In this document: piece after piece, positions 1 through 37,912 of the stretch | How positions within the stretch are numbered: the first letter of the stretch is position 1 | Layout: every line of letters starts with the position of its first letter | Source: a virus | Length of the DNA: 37,912 nt | Strand: one strand, 5' to 3' | IMG/VR virus record: IMGVR_UViG_3300022746_000010 | Span: 1 to 37,912 of that record | Notes under the pieces: generated by a model | Database searches by the model: none | The model's input: only the letters and a program-made list of their open reading frames with translations | What the model was told of the DNA's origin: nothing | Translations under genes and position numbers: made by a program

Positions 1-121
1 GTGTCAGCGTTGCGGACTGTGCGGCGGTGATCGTGGTCGACCAGCCTGGACCGTTGGCCGAAGCCACCAGGTCAAGCGCCTGCGCGCCGCGAATGAAGTA
101 ATGCAGCGCCCAGTCTGCGCT
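1..121. repeat. Terminal direct repeat, left copy (identical to 37792..37912)
   Basis: Read directly: gtgtcagcgttgcggactg...cccagtctgcgct occurs at both ends. Confidence 0.95.
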
Positions 122-14886: not shown

Positions 14887-15075
14887 ATGTCTGAATATCT
14901 CACACCAAACGAACTCGCCGCCCGCTACAAAGGCGCGATCACCGTGCGCACGCTGGCCAACTGGCGCAGCACCGGCCACGGCCCGCGCTTCACCAAAATC
15001 GGCGGGCGCGTCCTGTACCCAGTCGAAGCCGTCAACACTTGGGAGAAAAGCCGCACCAAGACTGATGCGGCGTGA
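14887..15075 (+). CDS. xis: Excisionase-type HTH_17 (AlpA/Xis-like) DNA-binding protein
   Basis: 62 aa. Pattern: LTPNELAARYKGAITVRTLANWRSTGHGPRFTKIGGRVLYPVEAVNTWE. AAGGGAAGGA lies upstream. Confidence 0.75.
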   Translation: MSEYLTPNELAARYKGAITVRTLANWRSTGHGPRFTKIGGRVLYPVEAVNTWEKSRTKTDAA

Positions 15076-15199: not shown

Positions 15200-15252
15200 T
15201 GGTGAGCGCGCAGGGACTCGAACCCTGGACCTACTGATTAAAAGTCAACCCT
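15200..15252 (-). other. attP core: 3' portion of a tRNA-Lys(UUU) gene (not a complete tRNA)
   Basis: Minus strand reads GTTGA-CTTTTAA-TCAGT AGGTC CAGGG-TTCGAGT-CCCTG CGCGCTC A CCA. This covers the anticodon arm, variable loop, T arm, 3' acceptor strand and CCA. No D arm or 5' acceptor strand lies upstream. Confidence 0.7.
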
Positions 15253-15373
15253 GATGCCATCATCGCGCATCACGCTGGTTCCCAGAATATCCCATCAAGC
15301 CTTTGTAAACGCGTGATTTCCTATGAATTCCCACTGTAAGTGCCAGCGCCGGTTTGGGCTTTTGACTTCGGCT

Positions 15374-15414: not shown

Positions 15415-16629
15415 ATGCTAAGTGCCCGCCAGGTCAATGCCGCGCTGAAGTCAAAAAAGCCCGAGATTGTGCTGAACGATGGCGCCGCTGGTCGCGGCAC
15501 TGGCAGCCTGCAGCTGGTCGTTCGTCACAATGATGGCCGCACGTCGGCCACCTGGTTCGGCGCCTGGTACGTCGACGGGAAGCTGCGCAAAAAGTCGCTG
15601 GGCCGGTGTCCCGATCTGCCGCTGGTGAAGGCCCGCAGGCTGTACGAAACCCAGGTGCGTGACGCCCTGGCCGAAGGTCGTGACCCGCGCGCCCTGGCCA
15701 TCGAACAGGCCGACGCCACCGTCGAACGGATGTTCCAGGGGTACGTGGCCCACATGCGCCAGCAGGGGCGCAGCAGCGCCGCTGAAGTCGAACTGCAGCT
15801 GCTGACGGGTAAGAACAACGCAGCCGACAAGCTGGGGCGCCAGCGCCTGGTGCCCACAATCACGCCGAACGAAATTTCGGTTCTGCTTGGCCGGATTTAC
15901 GACCGTGGCGCCAGGTCGATGGCCGACCACATGCGGGCCTATCTGTCGGCAGCGTTCAACTGGGCGGCAGCCGCGACGCATGACTATCGTGCCAAAGACC
16001 GCCAGGACTGGGGTCTGAAGTCGAACCCCGTGGACGTGGTGCCCAAGGACAGCGGCGCGTCCAAACCTCGCGAACGTAACCTGTCGGCGGCTGAAATCCG
16101 CGCGCTGTGGCGCGACCTGGATGGCCCAGGCTTTGATCTTGAAACCGCAGCAGCCATTCGCGTGCTGCTGTCGTGCGGGCAGCGCGTGCGCGAAACCCTG
16201 CGCATCGAACGTGGCGAAGTCGACCTGGCTGCGATGGCCTGGGTGATGCCTGCTGAAAAGACGAAAACGAAGCGGGCGCAACACGAAGTCCCACTGCCGC
16301 CACAGGCTGTGCGTGTGCTGCGCCTGCTGATGGCCACCAGGAAAGGTGCCCAGCTGTTCACCATCCAAGACACGTCGATCAATCGGGCGCTGCGTCGGTG
16401 GGCTGAACGCGAAGGTGTCGAACCGTTCCAGACGCGTGACCTGCGCCGGACGTGGAAATCGCGGGCAGGGGACGCAGGCGTCGACCGCTTCACGCGCGAT
16501 CTGATCCAGCAGCATGCCAAGGTCAGCGACACGGGGTCCAAGCATTACGACCACACCGACTACCGGCCACAGCTGCGCCAGGCGATGGCACGCTGGGCCT
16601 GGTGGCTGCGCCGCACGGTGCGGGGTTAG
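15415..16629 (+). CDS. int: Tyrosine integrase, P4-type (DUF4102 arm-binding N-domain)
   Basis: 404 aa. N-terminal: LSARQV...LNDG...GSLQLVV...WFGAWYVDGKLRKKSLG. Catalytic region: GQRVRET, RDLRRTWKS, QQHAKV...SKHY. The usual HxLRRT box reads RDLRRT. Confidence 0.92.
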   Translation: MLSARQVNAALKSKKPEIVLNDGAAGRGTGSLQLVVRHNDGRTSATWFGAWYVDGKLRKKSLGRCPDLPLVKARRLYETQVRDALAEGRDPRALAIEQADATVERMFQGYVAHMRQQGRSSAAEVELQLLTGKNNAADKLGRQRLVPTITPNEISVLLGRIYDRGARSMADHMRAYLSAAFNWAAAATHDYRAKDRQDWGLKSNPVDVVPKDSGASKPRERNLSAAEIRALWRDLDGPGFDLETAAAIRVLLSCGQRVRETLRIERGEVDLAAMAWVMPAEKTKTKRAQHEVPLPPQAVRVLRLLMATRKGAQLFTIQDTSINRALRRWAEREGVEPFQTRDLRRTWKSRAGDAGVDRFTRDLIQQHAKVSDTGSKHYDHTDYRPQLRQAMARWAWWLRRTVRG

Positions 16630-16818: not shown

Positions 16819-17034
16819 ATGGACATCGCAGACCAAGCCAACGACCTGATCGAAAAAGAAACCGCAGCGCGCCTGGCCACGCGCCAGGTGATGATGCTGC
16901 AGCCCTGCGGGTCGTGCCATAACTGCGGGGAAGACATCGAACCAGGCCGCGTGTTCTGCGCTGGCGTCGACTGTCGCAACGACTACGACAAACGCCTTCG
17001 GGCACAAAAAAACCGACCCGTAGGTCGGTTGTAA
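16819..17034 (+). CDS. Small zinc-ribbon protein (TraR/DksA-like helix plus CxxCG..I...R, then FCxxxxC)
   Basis: 71 aa. C33-x2-C36-G-E-D-I-x-x-G-R ... F-C47-x4-C52. No clear SD, so the start is uncertain. Confidence 0.45.
   Translation: MDIADQANDLIEKETAARLATRQVMMLQPCGSCHNCGEDIEPGRVFCAGVDCRNDYDKRLRAQKNRPVGRL
17006..17030 (-). terminator. Intrinsic terminator of the late/lysis operon
   Basis: Minus strand reads AACCGACC-TACG-GGTCGGTT followed by TTTTT. It lies inside the last codons of the convergent zinc-ribbon ORF. Confidence 0.75.
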
Positions 17035-17064: not shown

Positions 17065-17589
17065 TCAGGCGAACATCGTTTCGGCTGTCTGCTGAACGTG
17101 ATCGACACGCGCCAGCCAGCCTTTGATGAACTTCACCTGCGACGGGTCGCGGTCGACCAGTCCTTTGTAAAACGATTCTTTCGCAGCGCTGAACTGGTCC
17201 AGTGCGTGCTTCGGGTCGGCCTTGGCCACAGCGCCCATCGTGCCAGGACCGATGGCGCCGTCGGCGGTCACGCCCACAGCCTGCTGCAAGAACTTGGCAG
17301 CGCGGCCAGGTCCGGCGTTCACGGCGAAGTCGAACACAGCATAATCCAGGCCACCAGGCAGGTCGTCGCCGTGGACCTTGTCCCAGTAGAGTTTCTTGTA
17401 GAACGGCTTCACCGTATCGACGGTCAGCGCGCGCATTTCGCCGTCGGCGATGGGGCGGCCCAGGTACTCGGACCAGGCTTTCTTTGTGACGCCCAGGTTC
17501 GTTTCGCCGCCGTGGTCGTGCGGGTCGTTTACATAGCCGCCTTCGGATTTGATGATCTGCGCAAACGCAGCATCGAAGTTTTGTTTCAT
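17065..17589 (-). CDS. Endolysin: glycoside hydrolase family 108 plus PG_binding_3 domain
   Basis: 174 aa. Signature EGGYVNDPHDHGGETNLGVT. The C-terminal half resembles a peptidoglycan-binding domain. No signal or SAR segment. Confidence 0.88.
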   Translation of the reverse strand: MKQNFDAAFAQIIKSEGGYVNDPHDHGGETNLGVTKKAWSEYLGRPIADGEMRALTVDTVKPFYKKLYWDKVHGDDLPGGLDYAVFDFAVNAGPGRAAKFLQQAVGVTADGAIGPGTMGAVAKADPKHALDQFSAAKESFYKGLVDRDPSQVKFIKGWLARVDHVQQTAETMFA

Positions 17590-17592
17590 GGT

Positions 17593-18075
17593 TTACCTTT
17601 CAAGTAGTGTGCCGCGCACGTCGTTGTAAAAATCAATCAGGGCATTCAGTTGCCGGATGGCGTCGTCGCCTTCGGCTGCGATGTCGAGAAGTTTTCGAGC
17701 AGCTGCTGGGTCAAGTTTGCACTGCGCTTTGATGCCAGGTCGGGCGGCAGCAGGGGCGCTTGGGGCGGGTTGAACGGCACCACAGGGGACTGACAGCCAC
17801 ATAGAGCCAGACAGCAGGCCATCAGCCACGCGGTTGTTTTCAGTTTTTGCATTGTCTTGGGCCTTTCGTAATTCCAGCGCGTGGTTGTTGGCGCGCTCTT
17901 GCATTTCGCGCTCTTTTACCCGCGCTTCGTCGTTCAGCCTGGCGACTTCGATTTGCATTTCGGTCGTGGCGTCGTGGTGGCCTTTGTAGTAGCCACCGCC
18001 GAACGCGCTGCTGATCGCCAGCATCACACCGATGATCACCCAGGGGTTAGGCAGCAGGCCGAACATTTTCGTCAC
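17593..18075 (-). CDS. Rz: i-spanin (Rz-like)
   Basis: N-terminal TM segment (PWVIIGVMLAISSAFGGGYY), a coiled coil, and an embedded lipoprotein gene. GTG start at 18075, or ATG at 18066. Confidence 0.75.
   Translation of the reverse strand: MTKMFGLLPNPWVIIGVMLAISSAFGGGYYKGHHDATTEMQIEVARLNDEARVKEREMQERANNHALELRKAQDNAKTENNRVADGLLSGSMWLSVPCGAVQPAPSAPAAARPGIKAQCKLDPAAARKLLDIAAEGDDAIRQLNALIDFYNDVRGTLLER
17646..17852 (-). CDS. Rz1: o-spanin (Rz1-like lipoprotein) fully embedded in the Rz gene in another frame
   Basis: Sequence: MQKLKTTAWLMACCLALCGC-QSPVVPFNPPQAPLLPPDL. It has a signal peptide and lipobox, and the mature part is proline-rich. Confidence 0.75.
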   Translation of the reverse strand: MQKLKTTAWLMACCLALCGCQSPVVPFNPPQAPLLPPDLASKRSANLTQQLLENFSTSQPKATTPSGN

Positions 18076-18418
18076 CGTTGTCGTTGTCGATCACCACGGT
18101 CTGCGTGACCTGTGGTTCTGGTTCGGGTGCTGGTGCAGGTGTCGACATCGCCTTCGCGCCCAGAATGATGGCCAGCACAGAGAAAATCTGCACGGCGATC
18201 AACTCGAGTATGCGGTAGTTCTGCTTGTCCGCTGGCGCCATGTCCAGCATGGGCTGTTCGGAGAAAACCACGCTATATGCCAGCAAACCCGCGATCATCA
18301 CCAGAATGGTGACGAATCCACGCAGGATCATCCGTTTGCTGTTCGCTTCGATCTGTTCAGGCGTCAGGGCTGGGCCACGCCAGGCGTCGATGTACTGTTT
18401 GAATTCACTTGGGGTCAT
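18047..18418 (-). CDS. Candidate holin (two TM segments)
   Basis: 123 aa. TM1 ILRGFVTILVMIAGLLAYSVVF and TM2 ILELIAVQIFSVLAIILGA. It lies immediately upstream of Rz and overlaps it. The C-terminus is acidic rather than basic. Confidence 0.55.
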   Translation of the reverse strand: MTPSEFKQYIDAWRGPALTPEQIEANSKRMILRGFVTILVMIAGLLAYSVVFSEQPMLDMAPADKQNYRILELIAVQIFSVLAIILGAKAMSTPAPAPEPEPQVTQTVVIDNDNGDENVRPAA

Positions 18419-18590
18419 GGTTGCGTTTCCTTAAATATTCAGGGCAGGTTTGCGTGGCCTCGCAGATCGGCGGTTTGCAGTCTTCTTTTTCCCAGTTCTT
18501 CGGGTCTTGGCAGTGGTAGCGGTAGCGTTCTTGGCACGCTGTCGCGCCCATCATCACCACCAGCACCAGGATCAGTTTCAGTTTATTCAT
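18405..18590 (-). CDS. Cys-rich small lipoprotein (61 aa precursor)
   Basis: ATG at 18590 with AAAGG upstream. Sequence MNKLKLILVLVVMMGATAC carries the lipobox ATAC. The mature 42 aa contains 4 further Cys. Confidence 0.55.
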   Translation of the reverse strand: MNKLKLILVLVVMMGATACQERYRYHCQDPKNWEKEDCKPPICEATQTCPEYLRKRNHDPK

Positions 18591-18780
18591 CTTGGCCTTT
18601 CTTGAATCGTTCCCGTTCGTCACGCAGCAGCACGATGGCCTTGTCGACTTCTCGTTTGTGGTGCACCAGAACTGCGTCGACCGTCATCAGCCGCAGCAGC
18701 AAGATCACAAAGCACACAAACAAAATGCCGATGACCACGCACAGCAGAATGATCACCCCATTGTTGTCGTGTTTAGCCAT
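18583..18780 (-). CDS. Small single-pass membrane protein with a highly charged C-terminus (65 aa)
   Basis: ATG at 18780. Sequence: MAKHDNNGVIILLCVVIGILFVCFVILLLRL...HHKREVDKAIVLLRDERERFKKGQDE. Confidence 0.45.
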   Translation of the reverse strand: MAKHDNNGVIILLCVVIGILFVCFVILLLRLMTVDAVLVHHKREVDKAIVLLRDERERFKKGQDE

Positions 18781-19478
18781 ACGCAGCCCATCAAAACCCA
18801 AAAATAGAAAACCAGTCCAAGCCCGACAGACCAGGCGATGCTGCGGTCGATGCGGTCATTCCGTTCGTTCCACAGTTGCGCGTCGCGCTTTGCCTTTTCT
18901 CGCTTTTGCTTCAGCTGCCTGGCCTCTTGGCCAGCTTTCACCTTGTCGTTCATCGCGTTGAACCGCGTCCACAGCGGCCCCAGCTGTGACGGTGCGCGCA
19001 CGCGCATCATTTCGCTGAGTTTCATATACGCGCCGTCGACCTCGGCCTGCAGCGTTGTCAATTCCAGAACTTCTTTCGGGTCGATTACGTCCTTCCCGAA
19101 AACTTCGTCGTATCGCTTGGCGATGTAAGCCGCCAGCGTGCCGTGGTTTGTGAAGAACTCGCCCAGGTGTCCGATGAACTGCTGAACGATTTCGTCTTCG
19201 GTGGGGATGTGCGTTGTGTATTCTTCGCGCTTGCGTGACTTCGCGGCTGGCGCGGCTGCAGCGGCCACTGGTGCAGCTGGTGCGGGCGCTGGCTTGATGC
19301 CGAACAGCCCTCTGATGATCGACCAGATACCCTTGGCATCCTTGACGATCTGCTGTGCTTGCTCTGCAGCCTTTTTGATTTTTTGGACCTGCACGGTCCC
19401 TTCGCCCAGGCATTCGCAACAATACTGAATGCCGCTGTAAGCGGCCCGCAGTGCTGCAAGTGCTGTGAACGGGTCCAC
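18753..19478 (-). CDS. Tail-anchored membrane protein, unknown function (about 241 aa; start uncertain)
   Basis: GTG at 19478 (the alternative GTG is at 19550). It has a YCCEC cluster, an Ala/Pro linker, a basic coiled coil and a C-terminal TM segment IAWSVGLGLVFYFWVLMGCVWL. Confidence 0.5.
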   Translation of the reverse strand: MDPFTALAALRAAYSGIQYCCECLGEGTVQVQKIKKAAEQAQQIVKDAKGIWSIIRGLFGIKPAPAPAAPVAAAAAPAAKSRKREEYTTHIPTEDEIVQQFIGHLGEFFTNHGTLAAYIAKRYDEVFGKDVIDPKEVLELTTLQAEVDGAYMKLSEMMRVRAPSQLGPLWTRFNAMNDKVKAGQEARQLKQKREKAKRDAQLWNERNDRIDRSIAWSVGLGLVFYFWVLMGCVWLNTTTMG

Positions 19479-19479
19479 A

Positions 19480-19755
19480 TCACTTGGGCAGCGTGTTGAA
19501 CCAGGCTGATAGTTTGACCACCAGGCCGCCAACGGCAGCCGATGCGCCACCGACCATCATCAGCACACGCCAGCCACCCTTGGCTTCGGACAGTGTGGCG
19601 TTGATGGTCGCCAAGGCGGTGGTGAAGTCAGCGCGCATGCCTGAAAACTCGCGGCGTAATTCGGCGATTTCGTCACGTAGATCGCGCACGTCACGTTCCA
19701 ATGCTTCGATTTGCGCTTCATGTTTTCCAAGGTCGCGCTGAACTTCTTCGCCCAT
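19480..19755 (-). CDS. Coiled-coil protein with C-terminal TM anchor (91 aa)
   Basis: GAAGG lies upstream. Heptad region: EAQIEALERDVRDLRDEIAELRREF. C-terminal TM: WRVLMMVGGASAAVGGLVVKLSAWF. Confidence 0.6.
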   Translation of the reverse strand: MGEEVQRDLGKHEAQIEALERDVRDLRDEIAELRREFSGMRADFTTALATINATLSEAKGGWRVLMMVGGASAAVGGLVVKLSAWFNTLPK

Positions 19756-19757
19756 AT

Positions 19758-20006
19758 TTAGCCTTCAGTGGATGGGATGACGTCGACAGCGGGAATTGCC
19801 GCCGCATTCGGTTCTGTTGGGATCGCCGGTGCTTCAGGTGTCGCAGGCGGTGCGGGTGGCGCTGCAGGTGCGGGCTGTGCCTGCGCCTGGCACTGCTGCA
19901 GCACTTCGTCCAGCACGCGGCGGCTGATCTTGTGCGGCAGTTCTTCCAGGCCAGCCAGGATCACGTTGATCGCTTCAGGCGCCAGTTTGAGTTCGATGGT
20001 TTTCAT
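19758..20006 (-). CDS. Hypothetical protein with Pro/Ala-rich tail (82 aa)
   Basis: AAGGGGA-AACC-ATG start at 20006. Confidence 0.55.
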   Translation of the reverse strand: MKTIELKLAPEAINVILAGLEELPHKISRRVLDEVLQQCQAQAQPAPAAPPAPPATPEAPAIPTEPNAAAIPAVDVIPSTEG

Positions 20007-20033
20007 GGTTTCCCCTTTGTGGTTGTAAAACAA

Positions 20034-20321
20034 TTACCAAGGCTTGCCGCGCAACACGGGCGGGTTTTTCTGCGCCTCGATCTGTGCGGCCAGCGACTGT
20101 TCGACGTCGGCTTTGCCCAGCTTGGCTTGCACCCAGCTGATGACGTCGTGTTCGGTCAGCTTGTCGAACTCGATGAACGTGTCGGCGCGCTCAAAGCTAA
20201 CCGTGCCGTATGTGCTGGCGGTGAATTCGCCGTCCACTGCGGTCACGCTGTAGTGGCCGACAGTCACCAGGCCGTCGGTGGCTTCACGTTCAAGTTCGTT
20301 GATGGTCCAAGTGGTTTGCAT
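20034..20321 (-). CDS. Hypothetical acidic protein downstream of the tail fibre gene (95 aa; possible fibre accessory)
   Basis: AAGGAAA lies upstream. Assignment is by position only. Confidence 0.55.
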   Translation of the reverse strand: MQTTWTINELEREATDGLVTVGHYSVTAVDGEFTASTYGTVSFERADTFIEFDKLTEHDVISWVQAKLGKADVEQSLAAQIEAQKNPPVLRGKPW

Positions 20322-20333
20322 GGTGTGGTTTCC

Positions 20334-22205
20334 TTATTCGTACAGAATGTTAATCGAACCGGCGTCGAACGTGTCGGTGCCGTTCACGGTGGTGATGCGC
20401 ACAGCGGTCAGTGCGGCACCCAGCGACACCGCGCCAGCAGAAAACGACGCGCCGTTGCTGCCGTTGCGCGCCAGCGTGCCACCTTCGACCCAGGTGTTCG
20501 AACCGATGGTGCTGATCGTGATCACGCCGCTGGCTGTGTCACTGGCCACGAAGTTGCTCGACACGACAAAACCTGCGGTGCTGTTGCTTGCGGCCACAGA
20601 CGCCAAGCCGGTGACGACTTGCGACGCGTAGCCGCTGGTCGTGAATGTTGTCGAACCAGTGCCCAGCTGCACCAGCAGGTTACTGGTGCCGGACAGCGAC
20701 ACGCCACCGAAGTTGATCGTGATGCGCTTCACCCACGATGGGATGGCTGTGAAGTCTTTCGTCGTGCCAGATGTGGTTGCCTGGCTGGTGCCGGACACCA
20801 GCGGGCGCAGCGTTGCCGTGCCATCATTGATCGTGCCGCTGACGGACAAGTTCGTCGCGCCAGGGTCGGTGGTGTTGCCGATTGACATGCCACCGCTGGC
20901 GAAGATACGGGCGCGTTCTGTGTCATTAGTTTGGAAAGCAATATAGCCAGTCGAACGACCATCACCAATGATGCGTGTGTATCCACCAGTGTTTGTGGCT
21001 TGAAAATCTAAACGACTGTAATTTAAGGTTGCGTCATTAACTAATCCAAGTCCCGCACCATAAGTGCTTTCAGATTGAATTGTAAATTTTGAAAAGCCAG
21101 TAGTAAGACCAAGGTAAAGCTTCCCACTAGCATCAAGCGTCATTGCTTGGGTGAAGGTGATAGCTGTCCCTGCTGTGCCGGAAGGTGCGTTGTACCAGTA
21201 ATGTGCCCCGCTGCTTTGAACGTAGTTACTGGCTGCGGCAGTTGTCAGATACAAGTTACTAGAACCGTTGAAATAGTAATTGTCGCCAAAAGCTAAGTTG
21301 CCTGAAGCAAATCTCACAGACCCCGTTGTGCCAAACTGCTGCGCTTTATAACCACCACCCCAAGCACTAGGCGTAAGTCCCAAGCCTAGGTTGCCTACAG
21401 CATCAAGCGTCATTAAAGCAGTATTGCTGTCGTTCGTTGCCCAGTTAAATGATGGATTTACCGATGAACCACCGTTGATAAACCAAACTTTATGGTTCGC
21501 ATCATCAACAGCAAGAGATAGACGAGTTGCTCCGGCAGTGCCTGTCGTATTGGCGATTTTGAATTGAGCGCCGTTTGTGGTGCTTCCGTTTGCGCCAAAT
21601 ACTGTCAAAGGATTTGAAGGCGAACTCGTACCAATACCCAGGTTGCCAGCGCTATCCAGGCGCATCTTTTCAGCGCCGTTGATGCCAAATTGCAGAGCGA
21701 TGCTGCTATAGCTGGAAACAAAAAACCCAGTGCTTGTCGAGAAAATCGAGCCGCGAGTTGTGCCGCCGTCTTGAAAATCTATCTCGCCACCGCCTGTCGT
21801 TGCGGTGCCGTTGATGGTCAGTGTTTTGTAGCCTGCATAATTGTTTGGTGTTGCCGTTCCAAGGCCCAAATTTGTGCCATCAAAAACCAGTACCGCGCCA
21901 GTGGTTAGCTGTTTGCTTGCGTTCAGGTACGGCACGCCGTTCGCAGCACCACCAGACAGCGTCACGTTGCCCGATGCGCTTAAATCTTGGAATGCGAACG
22001 AAGTCGACAGGATTGCCCACACCGTGCCGTTGTACTTTTCGAACCGGTTGTTCGCGCTATTCCAGCGCACCGCGTTCGTGGGCACGTTGGTCGCGGTCGT
22101 GTTCGCAGGGTCCAGGCCCAGCGCCAGGTCTGCGATCTTCGCGTTCAGGTACGCCAGGAAATTGGCGTAAGTGTCAGTCGTCGCCGGTTTGTTGAAATCA
22201 GCCAT
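20334..22205 (-). CDS. Tail fibre / receptor-binding protein
   Basis: 623 aa, rich in Gly/Ser/Thr/Asn. Repeated motifs: MRLDSAGNLGIGT, MTLDAVGNLGLGL and MTLDASGKLYLGL. The C-terminal beta-rich domain ends FDAGSINILYE. Confidence 0.8.
   Translation of the reverse strand: MADFNKPATTDTYANFLAYLNAKIADLALGLDPANTTATNVPTNAVRWNSANNRFEKYNGTVWAILSTSFAFQDLSASGNVTLSGGAANGVPYLNASKQLTTGAVLVFDGTNLGLGTATPNNYAGYKTLTINGTATTGGGEIDFQDGGTTRGSIFSTSTGFFVSSYSSIALQFGINGAEKMRLDSAGNLGIGTSSPSNPLTVFGANGSTTNGAQFKIANTTGTAGATRLSLAVDDANHKVWFINGGSSVNPSFNWATNDSNTALMTLDAVGNLGLGLTPSAWGGGYKAQQFGTTGSVRFASGNLAFGDNYYFNGSSNLYLTTAAASNYVQSSGAHYWYNAPSGTAGTAITFTQAMTLDASGKLYLGLTTGFSKFTIQSESTYGAGLGLVNDATLNYSRLDFQATNTGGYTRIIGDGRSTGYIAFQTNDTERARIFASGGMSIGNTTDPGATNLSVSGTINDGTATLRPLVSGTSQATTSGTTKDFTAIPSWVKRITINFGGVSLSGTSNLLVQLGTGSTTFTTSGYASQVVTGLASVAASNSTAGFVVSSNFVASDTASGVITISTIGSNTWVEGGTLARNGSNGASFSAGAVSLGAALTAVRITTVNGTDTFDAGSINILYE
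20925..21900. other. Low-GC patch inside the tail fibre gene
   Basis: Hand counts: 38% GC (21001-21060) and 43% (21421-21480), against 68% (20401-20460). Confidence 0.7.
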
Positions 22206-33387: not shown

Positions 33388-35397
33388 TTAGGCAGTCAAT
33401 GCGTCAGTCATTGCAGAGAACGACTTGGCGTGGCGCAAGCCCATGTCAACAGACTGCAAGGCGCGGATGTCCACGCTGCCGTTGTTGTAGCCAGAACCGT
33501 ATGGGTTAGGCAGGACTTCCAAAACGCCCCACTCGCCGATGATCAATTCAGACCAGTTGCCGAACAAGACAGCAGACGCGACGCCGGAGGCGGTGCCCTT
33601 TGTCAATGTGCTAGACACTTGGTTCGAACGACCGAAGGTGTAGCCGTTGATCTCGCCAGGGGTGCCAGAACGCTGGCCGCCTGGGTAGTCGGTCCACAGG
33701 TACTGGCCGGTGGTCGACTTGAGTTTCTTCAAGGCGCCGACGACTTTGCTGTTCGACAAGTAGGCCAGGTTGCCTTCGTCCGCGTTGGCTGTGGTCACTT
33801 GGGTTTCCAAGTCGATCAGGTGGTCAATGGTGATGGCTGCACCGTTGGTGCCGCCAGCCACAGAACCGATGCCGCTGGTGTTCAAAATGCCAGTGGGCTG
33901 ACCGTTTGAACCAGTGCCTGCGATAGCTGCCAAGTCGATGGCCAAGGCCAACTGTGCTGCCAAGTCGCTGCGAACGATCATTTCGATGTCCGGTGTCGAC
34001 TGCATCATCATGTTGCGGGTCATCTGGCTGCGTGCGCCAACAGTCTTGGGCGACAAGCTGAGTTTGTCGAAGGCTGCTTCGGCTTCAGTCACGTCTGCAC
34101 CTTCCGACACCCAGTAGGTGGTGGTGGCGCTGGTTTGACGTGGGATGTCCACGTTGCCGACCAAGCCGGACAACATGCGGGCGCCCAACTGAACCACGCG
34201 GGCCTTGTTGCGCAACACTTCGATGAACTCGGAAGCCAACAAGTTGGTGGCCACCAAGGTGCCGCCAGTAGTGCCAGAACCGGCTGTACCGACAGCGTAG
34301 GCGCCAGACGATGCGTTTCGCATGCTGATGTTCATTGGCATGAAGAAACCGGCGGTGTCTTTGCCGCTGCGCTTGGCGATGGCTTCGGAACATGCACGCT
34401 CGAAACCGGCATCTTTCCAGTTGCCAGTCACTTGGGCGCGGATGGCGCGAACCAGGCTGTACTCTTGCTTTTCCTTGTCAGTCAAAGGCAGATCGGATGC
34501 GCCTTCGGTGACAGGGGTGCGCTTTGCGTCGGCGATCTTGTCCAAGAAAGCGGCGCGGGCTTCGTCGATAGAACGGCCACCTTCGACCAAGCTGCGTGCC
34601 AGGTCTTCGTTGCCGAACTTTTTGCCCAAGGCGTCGATGGTTGCGATGCGTGCGCGCTCGGCTGCAATAGCCTCGCCCTGCACGAGTTTGATGTCAACGG
34701 CTGGTGCAGCCGCAGTGTTTTCTTGCGTCATTGTGACCTCTGGAGGATTTGCTGCGGCAGCAGCGGGTTGGTGATCACGACGTACAAGTACGTCGCGTTC
34801 TTCCGCAGTCACAGACCGACCGACACCGATGGACGGGTCGGCTGGCACTGTAACCAGCGAAATTTCGTAAGGCGTCCAACTGGTCGCCGTATATGTGGGG
34901 ATGTCCGATTTTGCGTCGGTGATGTCCATTTCGTTCACGCGGTAGCCGAACGACACGTTCCGCATGATCTTGTCGTTCACCATGCCCATGCACTCGTCGG
35001 CCTGGGGCGTGTTCGCGAAACGCACGGTACACATGCCGCGCTTCGTCTTCGTGTCGATGCTGGCTTTCTCGATCACGCCGATGATGTCGTCCATGTTGTG
35101 GTTGAACAGCAGCGGGGCGCCATCGTTCAAGCGCGACAAGTCGGCAGCGCCAGCGGCGTGCGACAGCACTTCGTTGCCGAACCAGCGTTCGACGGGGTAT
35201 TCGCTGCTGAAGCTGAACGACAGCGTGCGGGTGTCCTGGTCGACCGCCAGGTCGCCTTCGGACATCGCGCGCACCAGCTGCGGCAGCTTAAAGCGCAGCT
35301 GGCCGTCCACCTCGGTGAACTCCACTTCGCGCTTGGCTTCAGGCGTGGCTTCGACAGGTTTTGCCTGCCACGGCATTGCGTGTGCTTGTTTTGTCAT
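33388..35397 (-). CDS. Prohead serine protease (S78/HK97 gp4-like) - linker - HK97-fold major capsid protein, as a single ORF
   Basis: 669 aa. Protease motifs LLFNHNMDDIIGV and NVSFGYRV. An Ala-rich/coiled linker follows. Capsid region: LVRAIRA...GFFMP... and LAIDLAAIAGTGSNGQPTGILN. Confidence 0.9.
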   Translation of the reverse strand: MTKQAHAMPWQAKPVEATPEAKREVEFTEVDGQLRFKLPQLVRAMSEGDLAVDQDTRTLSFSFSSEYPVERWFGNEVLSHAAGAADLSRLNDGAPLLFNHNMDDIIGVIEKASIDTKTKRGMCTVRFANTPQADECMGMVNDKIMRNVSFGYRVNEMDITDAKSDIPTYTATSWTPYEISLVTVPADPSIGVGRSVTAEERDVLVRRDHQPAAAAANPPEVTMTQENTAAAPAVDIKLVQGEAIAAERARIATIDALGKKFGNEDLARSLVEGGRSIDEARAAFLDKIADAKRTPVTEGASDLPLTDKEKQEYSLVRAIRAQVTGNWKDAGFERACSEAIAKRSGKDTAGFFMPMNISMRNASSGAYAVGTAGSGTTGGTLVATNLLASEFIEVLRNKARVVQLGARMLSGLVGNVDIPRQTSATTTYWVSEGADVTEAEAAFDKLSLSPKTVGARSQMTRNMMMQSTPDIEMIVRSDLAAQLALAIDLAAIAGTGSNGQPTGILNTSGIGSVAGGTNGAAITIDHLIDLETQVTTANADEGNLAYLSNSKVVGALKKLKSTTGQYLWTDYPGGQRSGTPGEINGYTFGRSNQVSSTLTKGTASGVASAVLFGNWSELIIGEWGVLEVLPNPYGSGYNNGSVDIRALQSVDMGLRHAKSFSAMTDALTA

Positions 35398-37438: not shown

Positions 37439-37912
37439 TTAAAAACGCACGTAAAGCGCGCGCGGATTGCCCAAGCCTTGCGCGATTTTCTGCGCCTGGC
37501 GTTCACGCACCACGATGGTTTTGTAGCGCGACTGCATTTCCAACAGGTCGCGCATGGGCGTTTTCTTCAGTGAACGGTTGCCGATTGTGTATTCCTCGGA
37601 CATGCCGCCATTCAGTCGGGCGGTGATCTCGGCATTGATCGCGTCCAGCGCGATCTCGGACGGTGTGCGGCCATCGAACGCGCCAGGCGTGCCGGTGAAC
37701 GCCATGTCCGCGATGATTTTGATCTGACCAGTGCCGATGGTGATGCGCTGGGTGCCCTTGGTCACGCTGGCCTGCCAGTAGAACTGGCCAGGTGTCAGCG
37801 TTGCGGACTGTGCGGCGGTGATCGTGGTCGACCAGCCTGGACCGTTGGCCGAAGCCACCAGGTCAAGCGCCTGCGCGCCGCGAATGAAGTAATGCAGCGC
37901 CCAGTCTGCGCT
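37439..37912 (-). CDS. C-terminal part of the wrap-around gpW-like gene (see 1..208)
   Basis: The C-terminal NGGMSEEYTIGNRSLKKTPMRDLLEMQSRYKTIVVRE resembles the gpW head-tail joining family. The frame is open to the window edge. Confidence 0.65.
   Translation of the reverse strand, partial: SADWALHYFIRGAQALDLVASANGPGWSTTITAAQSATLTPGQFYWQASVTKGTQRITIGTGQIKIIADMAFTGTPGAFDGRTPSEIALDAINAEITARLNGGMSEEYTIGNRSLKKTPMRDLLEMQSRYKTIVVRERQAQKIAQGLGNPRALYVRF
37792..37912. repeat. Terminal direct repeat, right copy (identical to 1..121)
   Basis: Read directly from the sequence. Confidence 0.95.

Follow-up and report, generated by a model that had tools for sequence, protein, structure and literature searches.

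Small membrane-protein and lipoprotein genes between the tail fibre and lysis genes of a freshwater phage: probable parts of an enlarged lysis cassette

The stretch of DNA analysed here, referred to as the window, comprises 37,912 nucleotides (nt) of an uncultivated virus (IMG/VR record IMGVR_UViG_3300022746_000010, positions 1 to 37,912). Between a tail fibre gene and a holin candidate it carries six small open reading frames (ORFs) on the minus strand, here named A to F. Four of them, C to F, are probably late-expressed components of an enlarged lysis cassette made up of C, the pair D-E, F together with the holin candidate (hol), the spanin genes Rz and Rz1, and an endolysin; the probability of this reading is put at roughly 0.58. 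An earlier note on this DNA had taken the six ORFs for a single system, but to judge from their relatives they form separately conserved modules: fibre-A, sometimes A-B, then C, D-E and F-hol. All of the functional roles given below for C, D, E and F are drawn from gene order and protein architecture, and their topology is a prediction from sequence. The six ORFs all have protein-level relatives in contigs of other phages and so qualify as genuine genes, not as reading frames that arose by chance in a GC-rich genome; their positions and individual features are as the note had described them.

From D through Rz the genes form a continuous chain of overlaps. D (18753..19478; 241 amino acids (aa) from a GTG start codon) overlaps E (18583..18780; 65 aa) by 28 nt, E overlaps F (18405..18590; a 61-aa precursor) by 8 nt, F overlaps hol (18047..18418; 123 aa) by 14 nt, and hol overlaps Rz (17593..18075) by 29 nt, all on the minus strand; the endolysin gene (17065..17589, minus) follows Rz after 3 nt. 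Upstream of D the genes are separated by short gaps of 12 nt (fibre to A), 27 nt (A to B), 2 nt (B to C) and one base, the GTG of D lying one base past the stop codon of C. The overlaps indicate that expression of D, E and F is coupled to that of the lysis genes. No sigma-70-like site was found on the minus strand of 18405-20321 in a promoter scan limited to the sigma-70 consensus, and the single terminator-like hairpin in this interval is weak (3 GC pairs, 18834-18812) and lies within the coding sequence of D. There is also no composition break relative to the lysis genes, the G+C content at third codon positions (GC3) being 0.78 in A, 0.63 in B and C, 0.68-0.69 in D, E and F, and 0.64-0.77 in hol, Rz and the endolysin gene.

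The earlier note had regarded the six genes as surplus to a complete lysis set and as occupants of a moron slot. The lysis set is present, with the spanins and the endolysin recognised by family match and hol without a family, but the hallmarks of morons that were looked for (an own promoter or terminator, odd composition, sporadic presence) are all lacking. When related phages are compared, D-E and F-hol hold fixed positions beside holin, spanin and endolysin genes in well over 100 contigs. The proteins of the window were scanned against PHROGs, Pfam, NCBIfam and PADLOC (reporting threshold E <= 0.05-0.1), and B, D, E, F and hol gave no match beyond coiled-coil or low-complexity noise. The statement that no family can be recognised stands for B, D, E and F, and for C as well, although relatives of C match XhlA-type families; it does not extend to A, which belongs to DUF7936.

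The association of D with lysis genes is seen in all 23 loci collected around D homologues (loci from related contigs carry L numbers below): holin-like, spanin or endolysin genes start 150-1750 nt downstream of D in each of them. The endolysins concerned are of several types, namely peptidase M15, VanY-like, glycoside hydrolase family 24 (GH24; T4-lysozyme-like, assigned by eye from the sequence), a GH19-like enzyme annotated as 'chitinase A' and, in the window, GH108. Every D-seeded locus with upstream sequence has, just before D, a gene for a protein of 58-96 aa with one or two transmembrane (TM) segments, usually a coiled coil with a C-terminal TM. At L010 and L011 this gene encodes a T7-type holin (PF10746 at 1.7e-6, phrog_920 at 3.5e-16), so that D is flanked there by lysis genes on both sides. 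Since the record containing L117 is labelled Podoviridae, D is probably not tied to a single tail type. A second, divergent copy of D, 27% identical to the D of the window, occurs on the opposite strand of L013 (5354-6031), about 2 kb from the syntenic copy.

E accompanies D closely. Its homologues overlap the end of D in L011-L018 and L058, and of the 55 loci with both D and F, 51 have an E-like ORF between the two. E is also found without F (L012-L018), and where F is missing from D-E phages the holin type differs too. In L001-L008 and L015-L018 the place of F-hol downstream of D-E is taken by three other genes, which encode a 161-aa DUF4337 membrane protein, a 109-aa multi-TM protein with a weak match to the holin family phrog_8226, and a 243-aa protein that has no Pfam match and is presumably the endolysin.

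At least 572 homologues of D were collected (95 clusters at 50% identity), all of them unnamed and none with a Pfam domain; a protein search of deposited phage genomes returned one record, the uncultured phage MW202484, at 28% identity. A profile of D searched against PDB sequences gave nothing under E = 0.5. The D of the window carries a YCCEC cluster, an Ala/Pro linker and, over residues 213-236 or thereabouts, a C-terminal TM. The features conserved across the wide family are an N-terminal amphipathic region, a core motif P-x-E-L-G-x-L-Y/W with an invariant Pro, and the C-terminal TM, while the Pro/Ala linker varies. Among close relatives the mean column identity of the core reaches 70%, which seems to be above the norm for holins. 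The YCCEC cluster singled out by the earlier note is thus present in this D but is not a family trait: the wider family has just one Cys in common, which lies in a GCE motif, and a metal or disulfide site at YCCEC was rejected. An AlphaFold2 model of D is all-helical (predicted local distance difference test (pLDDT) 68.5); its conserved core holds three long helices, and the third continues into the TM. Foldseek searches with this model found no match in the PDB at E <= 0.001 and only uncharacterised phage proteins in BFVD; matches to syntaxin/SNARE, SH3BP5 and EmrA were rejected as generic long helices (TM-scores 0.12-0.2).

F goes with the holin candidate. It has relatives in 110 stretches; hol lies within 260 nt after F in 68 of 77 F-seeded loci, Rz follows in 70 of 71, and a distant D (21-30% identity) is found upstream in 47 of 61. 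The precursor has a signal peptide that runs to the lipobox ATAC, and the mature 42 aa hold four further Cys. In an alignment of 43 unique homologues, with seven database proteins aligned as well, the mature-domain motif RYRYHCQDP..W..(E/D)C..P.C....CP is conserved and the four Cys beyond the lipidated one are invariant. The lipobox has the form L-x-G/A/S-C in most of the 43, and in many the lipid Cys is followed by Asp or Glu at +2/+3; Asp at +2 favours retention of lipoproteins in the inner membrane of E. coli, a rule that comes from that species and not from the hosts considered here. The outer-membrane location given for F in the earlier note is accordingly only putative. The F homologues of L010 (8499-8690) and L011 (about 1346-1500) keep RYRY.CQ.P and three Cys and do not have the lipobox Cys; instead of being lipidated, they may be secreted or held by a signal anchor. 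The AlphaFold2 model of F is of low confidence (pLDDT 57.6). A divergent homologue, like F itself, matches no family in the four libraries, in which models of Cor and Llp were not confirmed to be present. Receptor masking of the Cor/Llp type had been offered as one role for the cluster, but F tracks the holin candidate, and it stays 45-76% identical beside quite different fibre genes (for example at L040, L044, L048 and L097).

The product of hol has two TM stretches, a predicted periplasmic loop with a conserved 'APID' motif, and an acidic, Pro-rich C-terminus, where holins usually have a basic one. It matches no holin family, and a protein search of deposited phage genomes returned no record for it; its relative in L010 matches phrog_25359, a family of unknown function, at 4.5e-7.

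C (19480..19755, minus; 91 aa) consists of a coiled coil followed by a hydrophobic stretch at residues 64-82. Relatives number 51 proteins, and in the 33 that were aligned the layout of an N-terminal coiled coil and one C-terminal TM is kept, with an almost invariant motif TLSEAKGGW at the junction and a Gly/Ala-rich TM after it. C stands directly before D in L001-L008. Among PHROGs the top family is phrog_1193 ('hemolysin'), matched by 18 of the 33 family members (best 2.2e-6), and in Pfam it is XhlA (PF10779), matched by 10 of the 33 (best 1.7e-5). The one XhlA bit score seen is 14.3, below the gathering cut-off of 34.7, and the C of the window has no XhlA match at E <= 0.1 and reaches phrog_1193 at 0.065 only. 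C therefore appears to be distantly XhlA-like, rather than an established member of that family. XhlA-type holin partners are familiar mainly from phages of Gram-positive bacteria. The idea that the C-terminal coiled coil and TM of D might be an extended module of the XhlA/C type was also considered and was rejected (hhalign probability 0.2%).

Topology was assessed by counting charges and from plain hydropathy. Neither C nor D starts with a signal peptide, and each has just one TM, at the C-terminus; by the logic of tail anchoring the bulk of both should therefore face the cytoplasm. In E, the TM at about residues 9-29 is followed by a charged helical tail, 36 aa long in the window and 18-45 aa in relatives. 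The flank on the N-terminal side is neutral or acidic in 17 E variants and the C-terminal flank is net positive in most, a charge bias that suggests an N-out/C-in orientation with the tail in the cytoplasm. The envelope-spanning set imagined in the earlier note thus gains no support, given that C, D and the tail of E are all predicted on the cytoplasmic side.

A mechanism consistent with these data can be laid out in steps, ordered from the most to the least supported. C, D, E and F would be made late, alongside holin, spanin and endolysin. C and the two-TM hol might then act as a two-part holin, after the example of XhlA/XhlB of PBSX and gp24.1/gp26 of SPP1. The tail-anchored D would pair with E, both extending helical domains into the cytoplasm, and set or gate the timing of the inner-membrane lesion in the manner of an antiholin or timer; such a pair could be combined with different holin and endolysin types. 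F, whose small lipoprotein domain would be disulfide-bonded and lie at the periplasmic face, may act on the holin family to which it is linked. Lysis timing was one of three roles put forward in the earlier note, and it agrees with the gene order, the overlaps and the synteny with lysis genes. The portability of D-E between holin and endolysin sets hints at a host or general membrane target.

Several points weigh against a lysis role. D, E, F and hol have no homologue of known function, so the case is built from gene order and architecture, and the topology comes from hydropathy and charge counts rather than dedicated predictors. The link between C and XhlA is weak, given that the C of the window has no such match at E <= 0.1 and that coiled coils draw spurious matches. 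D-E join several unrelated holin types, which counts against a specific contact between antiholin and holin and leaves room for a host target or for a role outside lysis. A scan for the sigma-70 consensus leaves room for an internal promoter, and the exclusion factors Cor, Llp and Bor are themselves small lipoproteins or membrane proteins whose genes lie close to those for tail and lysis. A bolder version of the lysis reading, which we hold only tentatively, is that D-E, joined by F in the phages that have it, constitute a widespread and hitherto undescribed module for lysis control in phages of freshwater Burkholderiales, with a mechanism unrelated to known antiholins. D and E would act from the cytoplasmic face and F from the periplasmic face, jointly gating or timing the triggering of the holin; as D-E can go with unrelated sets of holin and endolysin, their target may be a conserved host membrane component rather than the holin.

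If the genes do not serve lysis, C to F could be accessory morons, expressed from the prophage or late, that act in superinfection exclusion or receptor masking like Cor, Llp or Sie, F acting at the outer membrane and the other three at the inner one. The phage is temperate (it has an integrase and an HTH_17 excisionase-like ORF), the genes sit between fibre and lysis genes, and F is a small, Cys-rich lipoprotein, as is Llp of T5; moreover, a lysis role of the C-F proteins is itself inferred, and the independence of D-E from holin type makes a host or incoming-phage target conceivable. We nevertheless consider this explanation unlikely. The distribution is not sporadic, D-E and F-hol being fixed in position in more than 100 contigs; the genes from D to Rz overlap, no promoter or terminator was found among them, and their composition shows no break; and F co-varies with hol rather than with the fibre, being conserved beside unrelated fibres. 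F also has no match, exclusion-annotated or other, among the PHROG, Pfam and PADLOC families, and the cytoplasmic side is the one predicted for C, D and E. None of 80 F-seeded loci has a homologue of the integrase of the window or of L015 within its 5-kb flanks, although flanks of this length say little about lifestyle.

It is a little less probable still that D-E, and perhaps C, are late membrane proteins of neither kind, engaged, for example, in virion assembly or DNA packaging at the membrane, or travelling in the virion as ejection or pilot proteins, and that lysis genes adjoin them merely because both close the late operon. Their place at the boundary of the tail and lysis modules would suit such a role, as would the strong conservation of the D core among close relatives and the independence of D-E from holin and endolysin type. 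Yet the recognised holin upstream of D in L010 and L011 places D inside the lysis block, and the overlaps from D to Rz speak for expression coupled with the lysis genes. The fibre-A unit, for its part, usually has no detectable D beside it (D in 6 of 80 A-seeded loci), and the label of L117 indicates that D is probably not bound to one type of tail. A further proposal, that E as the type II membrane protein and F as the lipoprotein make up an additional two-component spanin in miniature, or else modulate Rz/Rz1, draws on the single-pass E with its charged helical tail and on its overlap with the following lipoprotein gene, as in separated or overlapped spanins. It appears very improbable: the phage already has a true Rz/Rz1 pair, many phages (L012-L018) carry E but no F, the syntenic partner of F is hol rather than E, and the soluble tail of E is only 18-45 aa in relatives and predicted to be cytoplasmic, while the periplasmic domains of i-spanins (the inner-membrane components) are far longer. 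Membership of C to F in the lysis cassette is thus the reading that we prefer.

The two ORFs nearest the fibre gene are a different matter. A (20034..20321, minus; 95 aa) is acidic, with an isoelectric point of 4.6, and is a DUF7936 protein, matching PF25590 over residues 2-95 of 95 with 95.5 bits (cut-off 27; E = 3.6e-27) and phrog_7802 at 2.7e-24. It has relatives in 171 stretches of IMG/VR. A homologue of the fibre of the window lies directly upstream in 55 of 80 A-seeded loci, and B was detected in none of the 80. By this synteny A goes with the tail-fibre gene and falls outside the membrane set. B (19758..20006, minus; 82 aa from an ATG preceded by a GGGGA ribosome-binding site) has a conserved helical N-terminal half with the motif GLEELPHK.SR and a variable, Pro/Ala-rich tail, and no TM segment was found in it. 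B is small and soluble and is found with A in some phages: six of 14 loci seeded on its IMG/VR relatives have B directly after an A homologue, and the A-B pair occurs partly in otherwise unrelated low-GC phages. One unrelated phage (L115, 4573-7288) presents a miniature of the whole order, with an A-like gene (DUF7936), a B-like, a D-like and a hol-like gene, Rz and an endolysin; its D-like protein is tail-anchored, has 172 aa and belongs to phrog_32327, and its endolysin resembles, as judged by eye, the GH19-type enzyme of L117.

The fibre gene itself (20334-22205, 623 aa) is the composition outlier of the late operon, with a GC3 of 0.59 as against 0.73-0.80 in other structural genes and a G+C content of 0.488 in its central kilobase (21001-22000), which suggests that the receptor-binding part was recently exchanged. 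The C-terminal 150 or so aa of the fibre are found again in many related loci.

The first 121 nt of the window (1-121) are identical to the last 121 (37792-37912). This makes the window a complete phage genome, circularly closed and about 37.8 kb long, and not a fragment of a host chromosome, and the phage is a temperate, lambda-like siphophage. Its late operon, on the minus strand, begins with the large terminase, a lambda-type portal, a fusion of protease and capsid (33388-35397; 669 aa, with Peptidase_S78 prohead protease and Phage_capsid domains in one ORF) and a lambda-type tape-measure protein, continues with DUF1833, NlpC/P60, a 1674-aa J-like protein, the fibre and A to F, and ends with hol, Rz and Rz1, the endolysin and a strong terminator-like hairpin. 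Rz is an i-spanin (phrog_1327 at 8e-18, PF03245 at 3.5e-7), and Rz1, the outer-membrane component (o-spanin; 17646..17852, minus), is embedded in it in another frame (phrog_3198 at 1.3e-6; lipobox LCGC in the translation). The endolysin combines a GH108 domain (PF05838 at 9e-28) with PG_binding_3 (PF09374 at 7e-13), matches phrog_315 at 2.7e-53 and has neither a signal-anchor-release (SAR) nor a signal sequence. The hairpin (17011..17030, minus) has an 8-bp stem with 5 GC pairs followed by TTTTTGTG, and closes the operon after the endolysin gene.

Beyond the terminator lie the integrase (15415-16629), a tRNA-Lys gene and the excisionase-like helix-turn-helix ORF (HTH_17, 14887-15075). The tRNA-Lys (anticodon TTT; 15200-15277, minus), situated between the two, may point to the attachment site or may be a tRNA carried by the phage. 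A plus-strand ORF for a 71-aa Zn-ribbon protein (16819-17034; CxxC...C, weak match to PF13240) lies between the integrase gene and the end of the late operon and is convergent on the terminator at 17030-17011. When 50,697 deposited phage genomes were searched at the DNA level, the region had no close relative among them, the matches being short ones to the endolysin and the fibre. A scan of genome collections returned four contigs only, from metagenome-assembled genomes labelled Burkholderiales, Fluviibacter and 'beta proteobacterium'; on this basis the hosts are probably freshwater Burkholderiales. All relatives are metagenomic, with no isolate phage or cultured host among the carriers found.

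Lysis cassettes of phages of Gram-negative bacteria are usually described as holin, endolysin and spanin, with at times an antiholin. What is new here is that D, E and F, three families without described relatives, appear to be built into such a cassette in hundreds of environmental contigs, and that a distantly XhlA-like protein occurs in a phage of probably Gram-negative hosts. No account of D, E or F was found in the literature on XhlA and holins, on lysis cassettes with lipoproteins, on DUF7936 and DUF4337 or on tail-anchored holins. Should a role in lysis control hold true, these proteins would be new parts for the lysis-timing toolkit and would explain the 'hypothetical membrane proteins' that recur at the tail/lysis boundary of freshwater phage genomes; annotators would also be cautioned that position alone is insufficient for a moron or exclusion label.

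Among known systems, C is closest in kind to XhlA of the Bacillus prophage PBSX and gp24.1 of phage SPP1, which are C-terminally anchored partners of the two-TM holins XhlB and gp26, lethality requiring both partners (PMC6316719; PMC10630273). The likeness lies in the size class of about 80-90 aa, the N-terminal coiled coil, the single C-terminal TM and an operon shared with a two-TM holin candidate and an endolysin. The differences are that the host here is probably Gram-negative, that spanins are present, that D, E and F stand between C and hol, and that the similarity lies under the Pfam cut-off; cooperation of C with hol is a proposal from gene layout. As a whole the C-F cassette is likened by its architecture to the sets of T4 (holin T with RI and RIII), P1 (LydA to LydE) and Mu (releasin), in which several extra small membrane or periplasmic proteins time or gate lysis and do not degrade the envelope. 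P1 illustrates that an antiholin can coexist with several holin-like proteins (PMC9025707), and Mu that a phage can depend on accessory membrane proteins of an unexpected kind (PMC9239132). D, E and F have no similarity to these proteins in sequence or, as searched for D only, in fold; the 241-aa tail-anchored helical D has no counterpart there, and the endolysin here has no SAR or signal sequence. The succession of E and F, a membrane anchor and then a lipoprotein from overlapping genes, recalls the Rz/Rz1 spanins, but F is not proline-rich as Rz1 is, and the true Rz/Rz1 pair lies immediately downstream. With Cor of phi80, T1 and N15, Llp of T5 and Bor and Lom of lambda, F shares the setting of a small lipoprotein near the fibre and lysis genes of a temperate siphophage. 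It differs from them in that it has no family match, gives no sign of independent transcription in the promoter and terminator scan, overlaps the holin candidate and is conserved whatever the type of fibre beside it.

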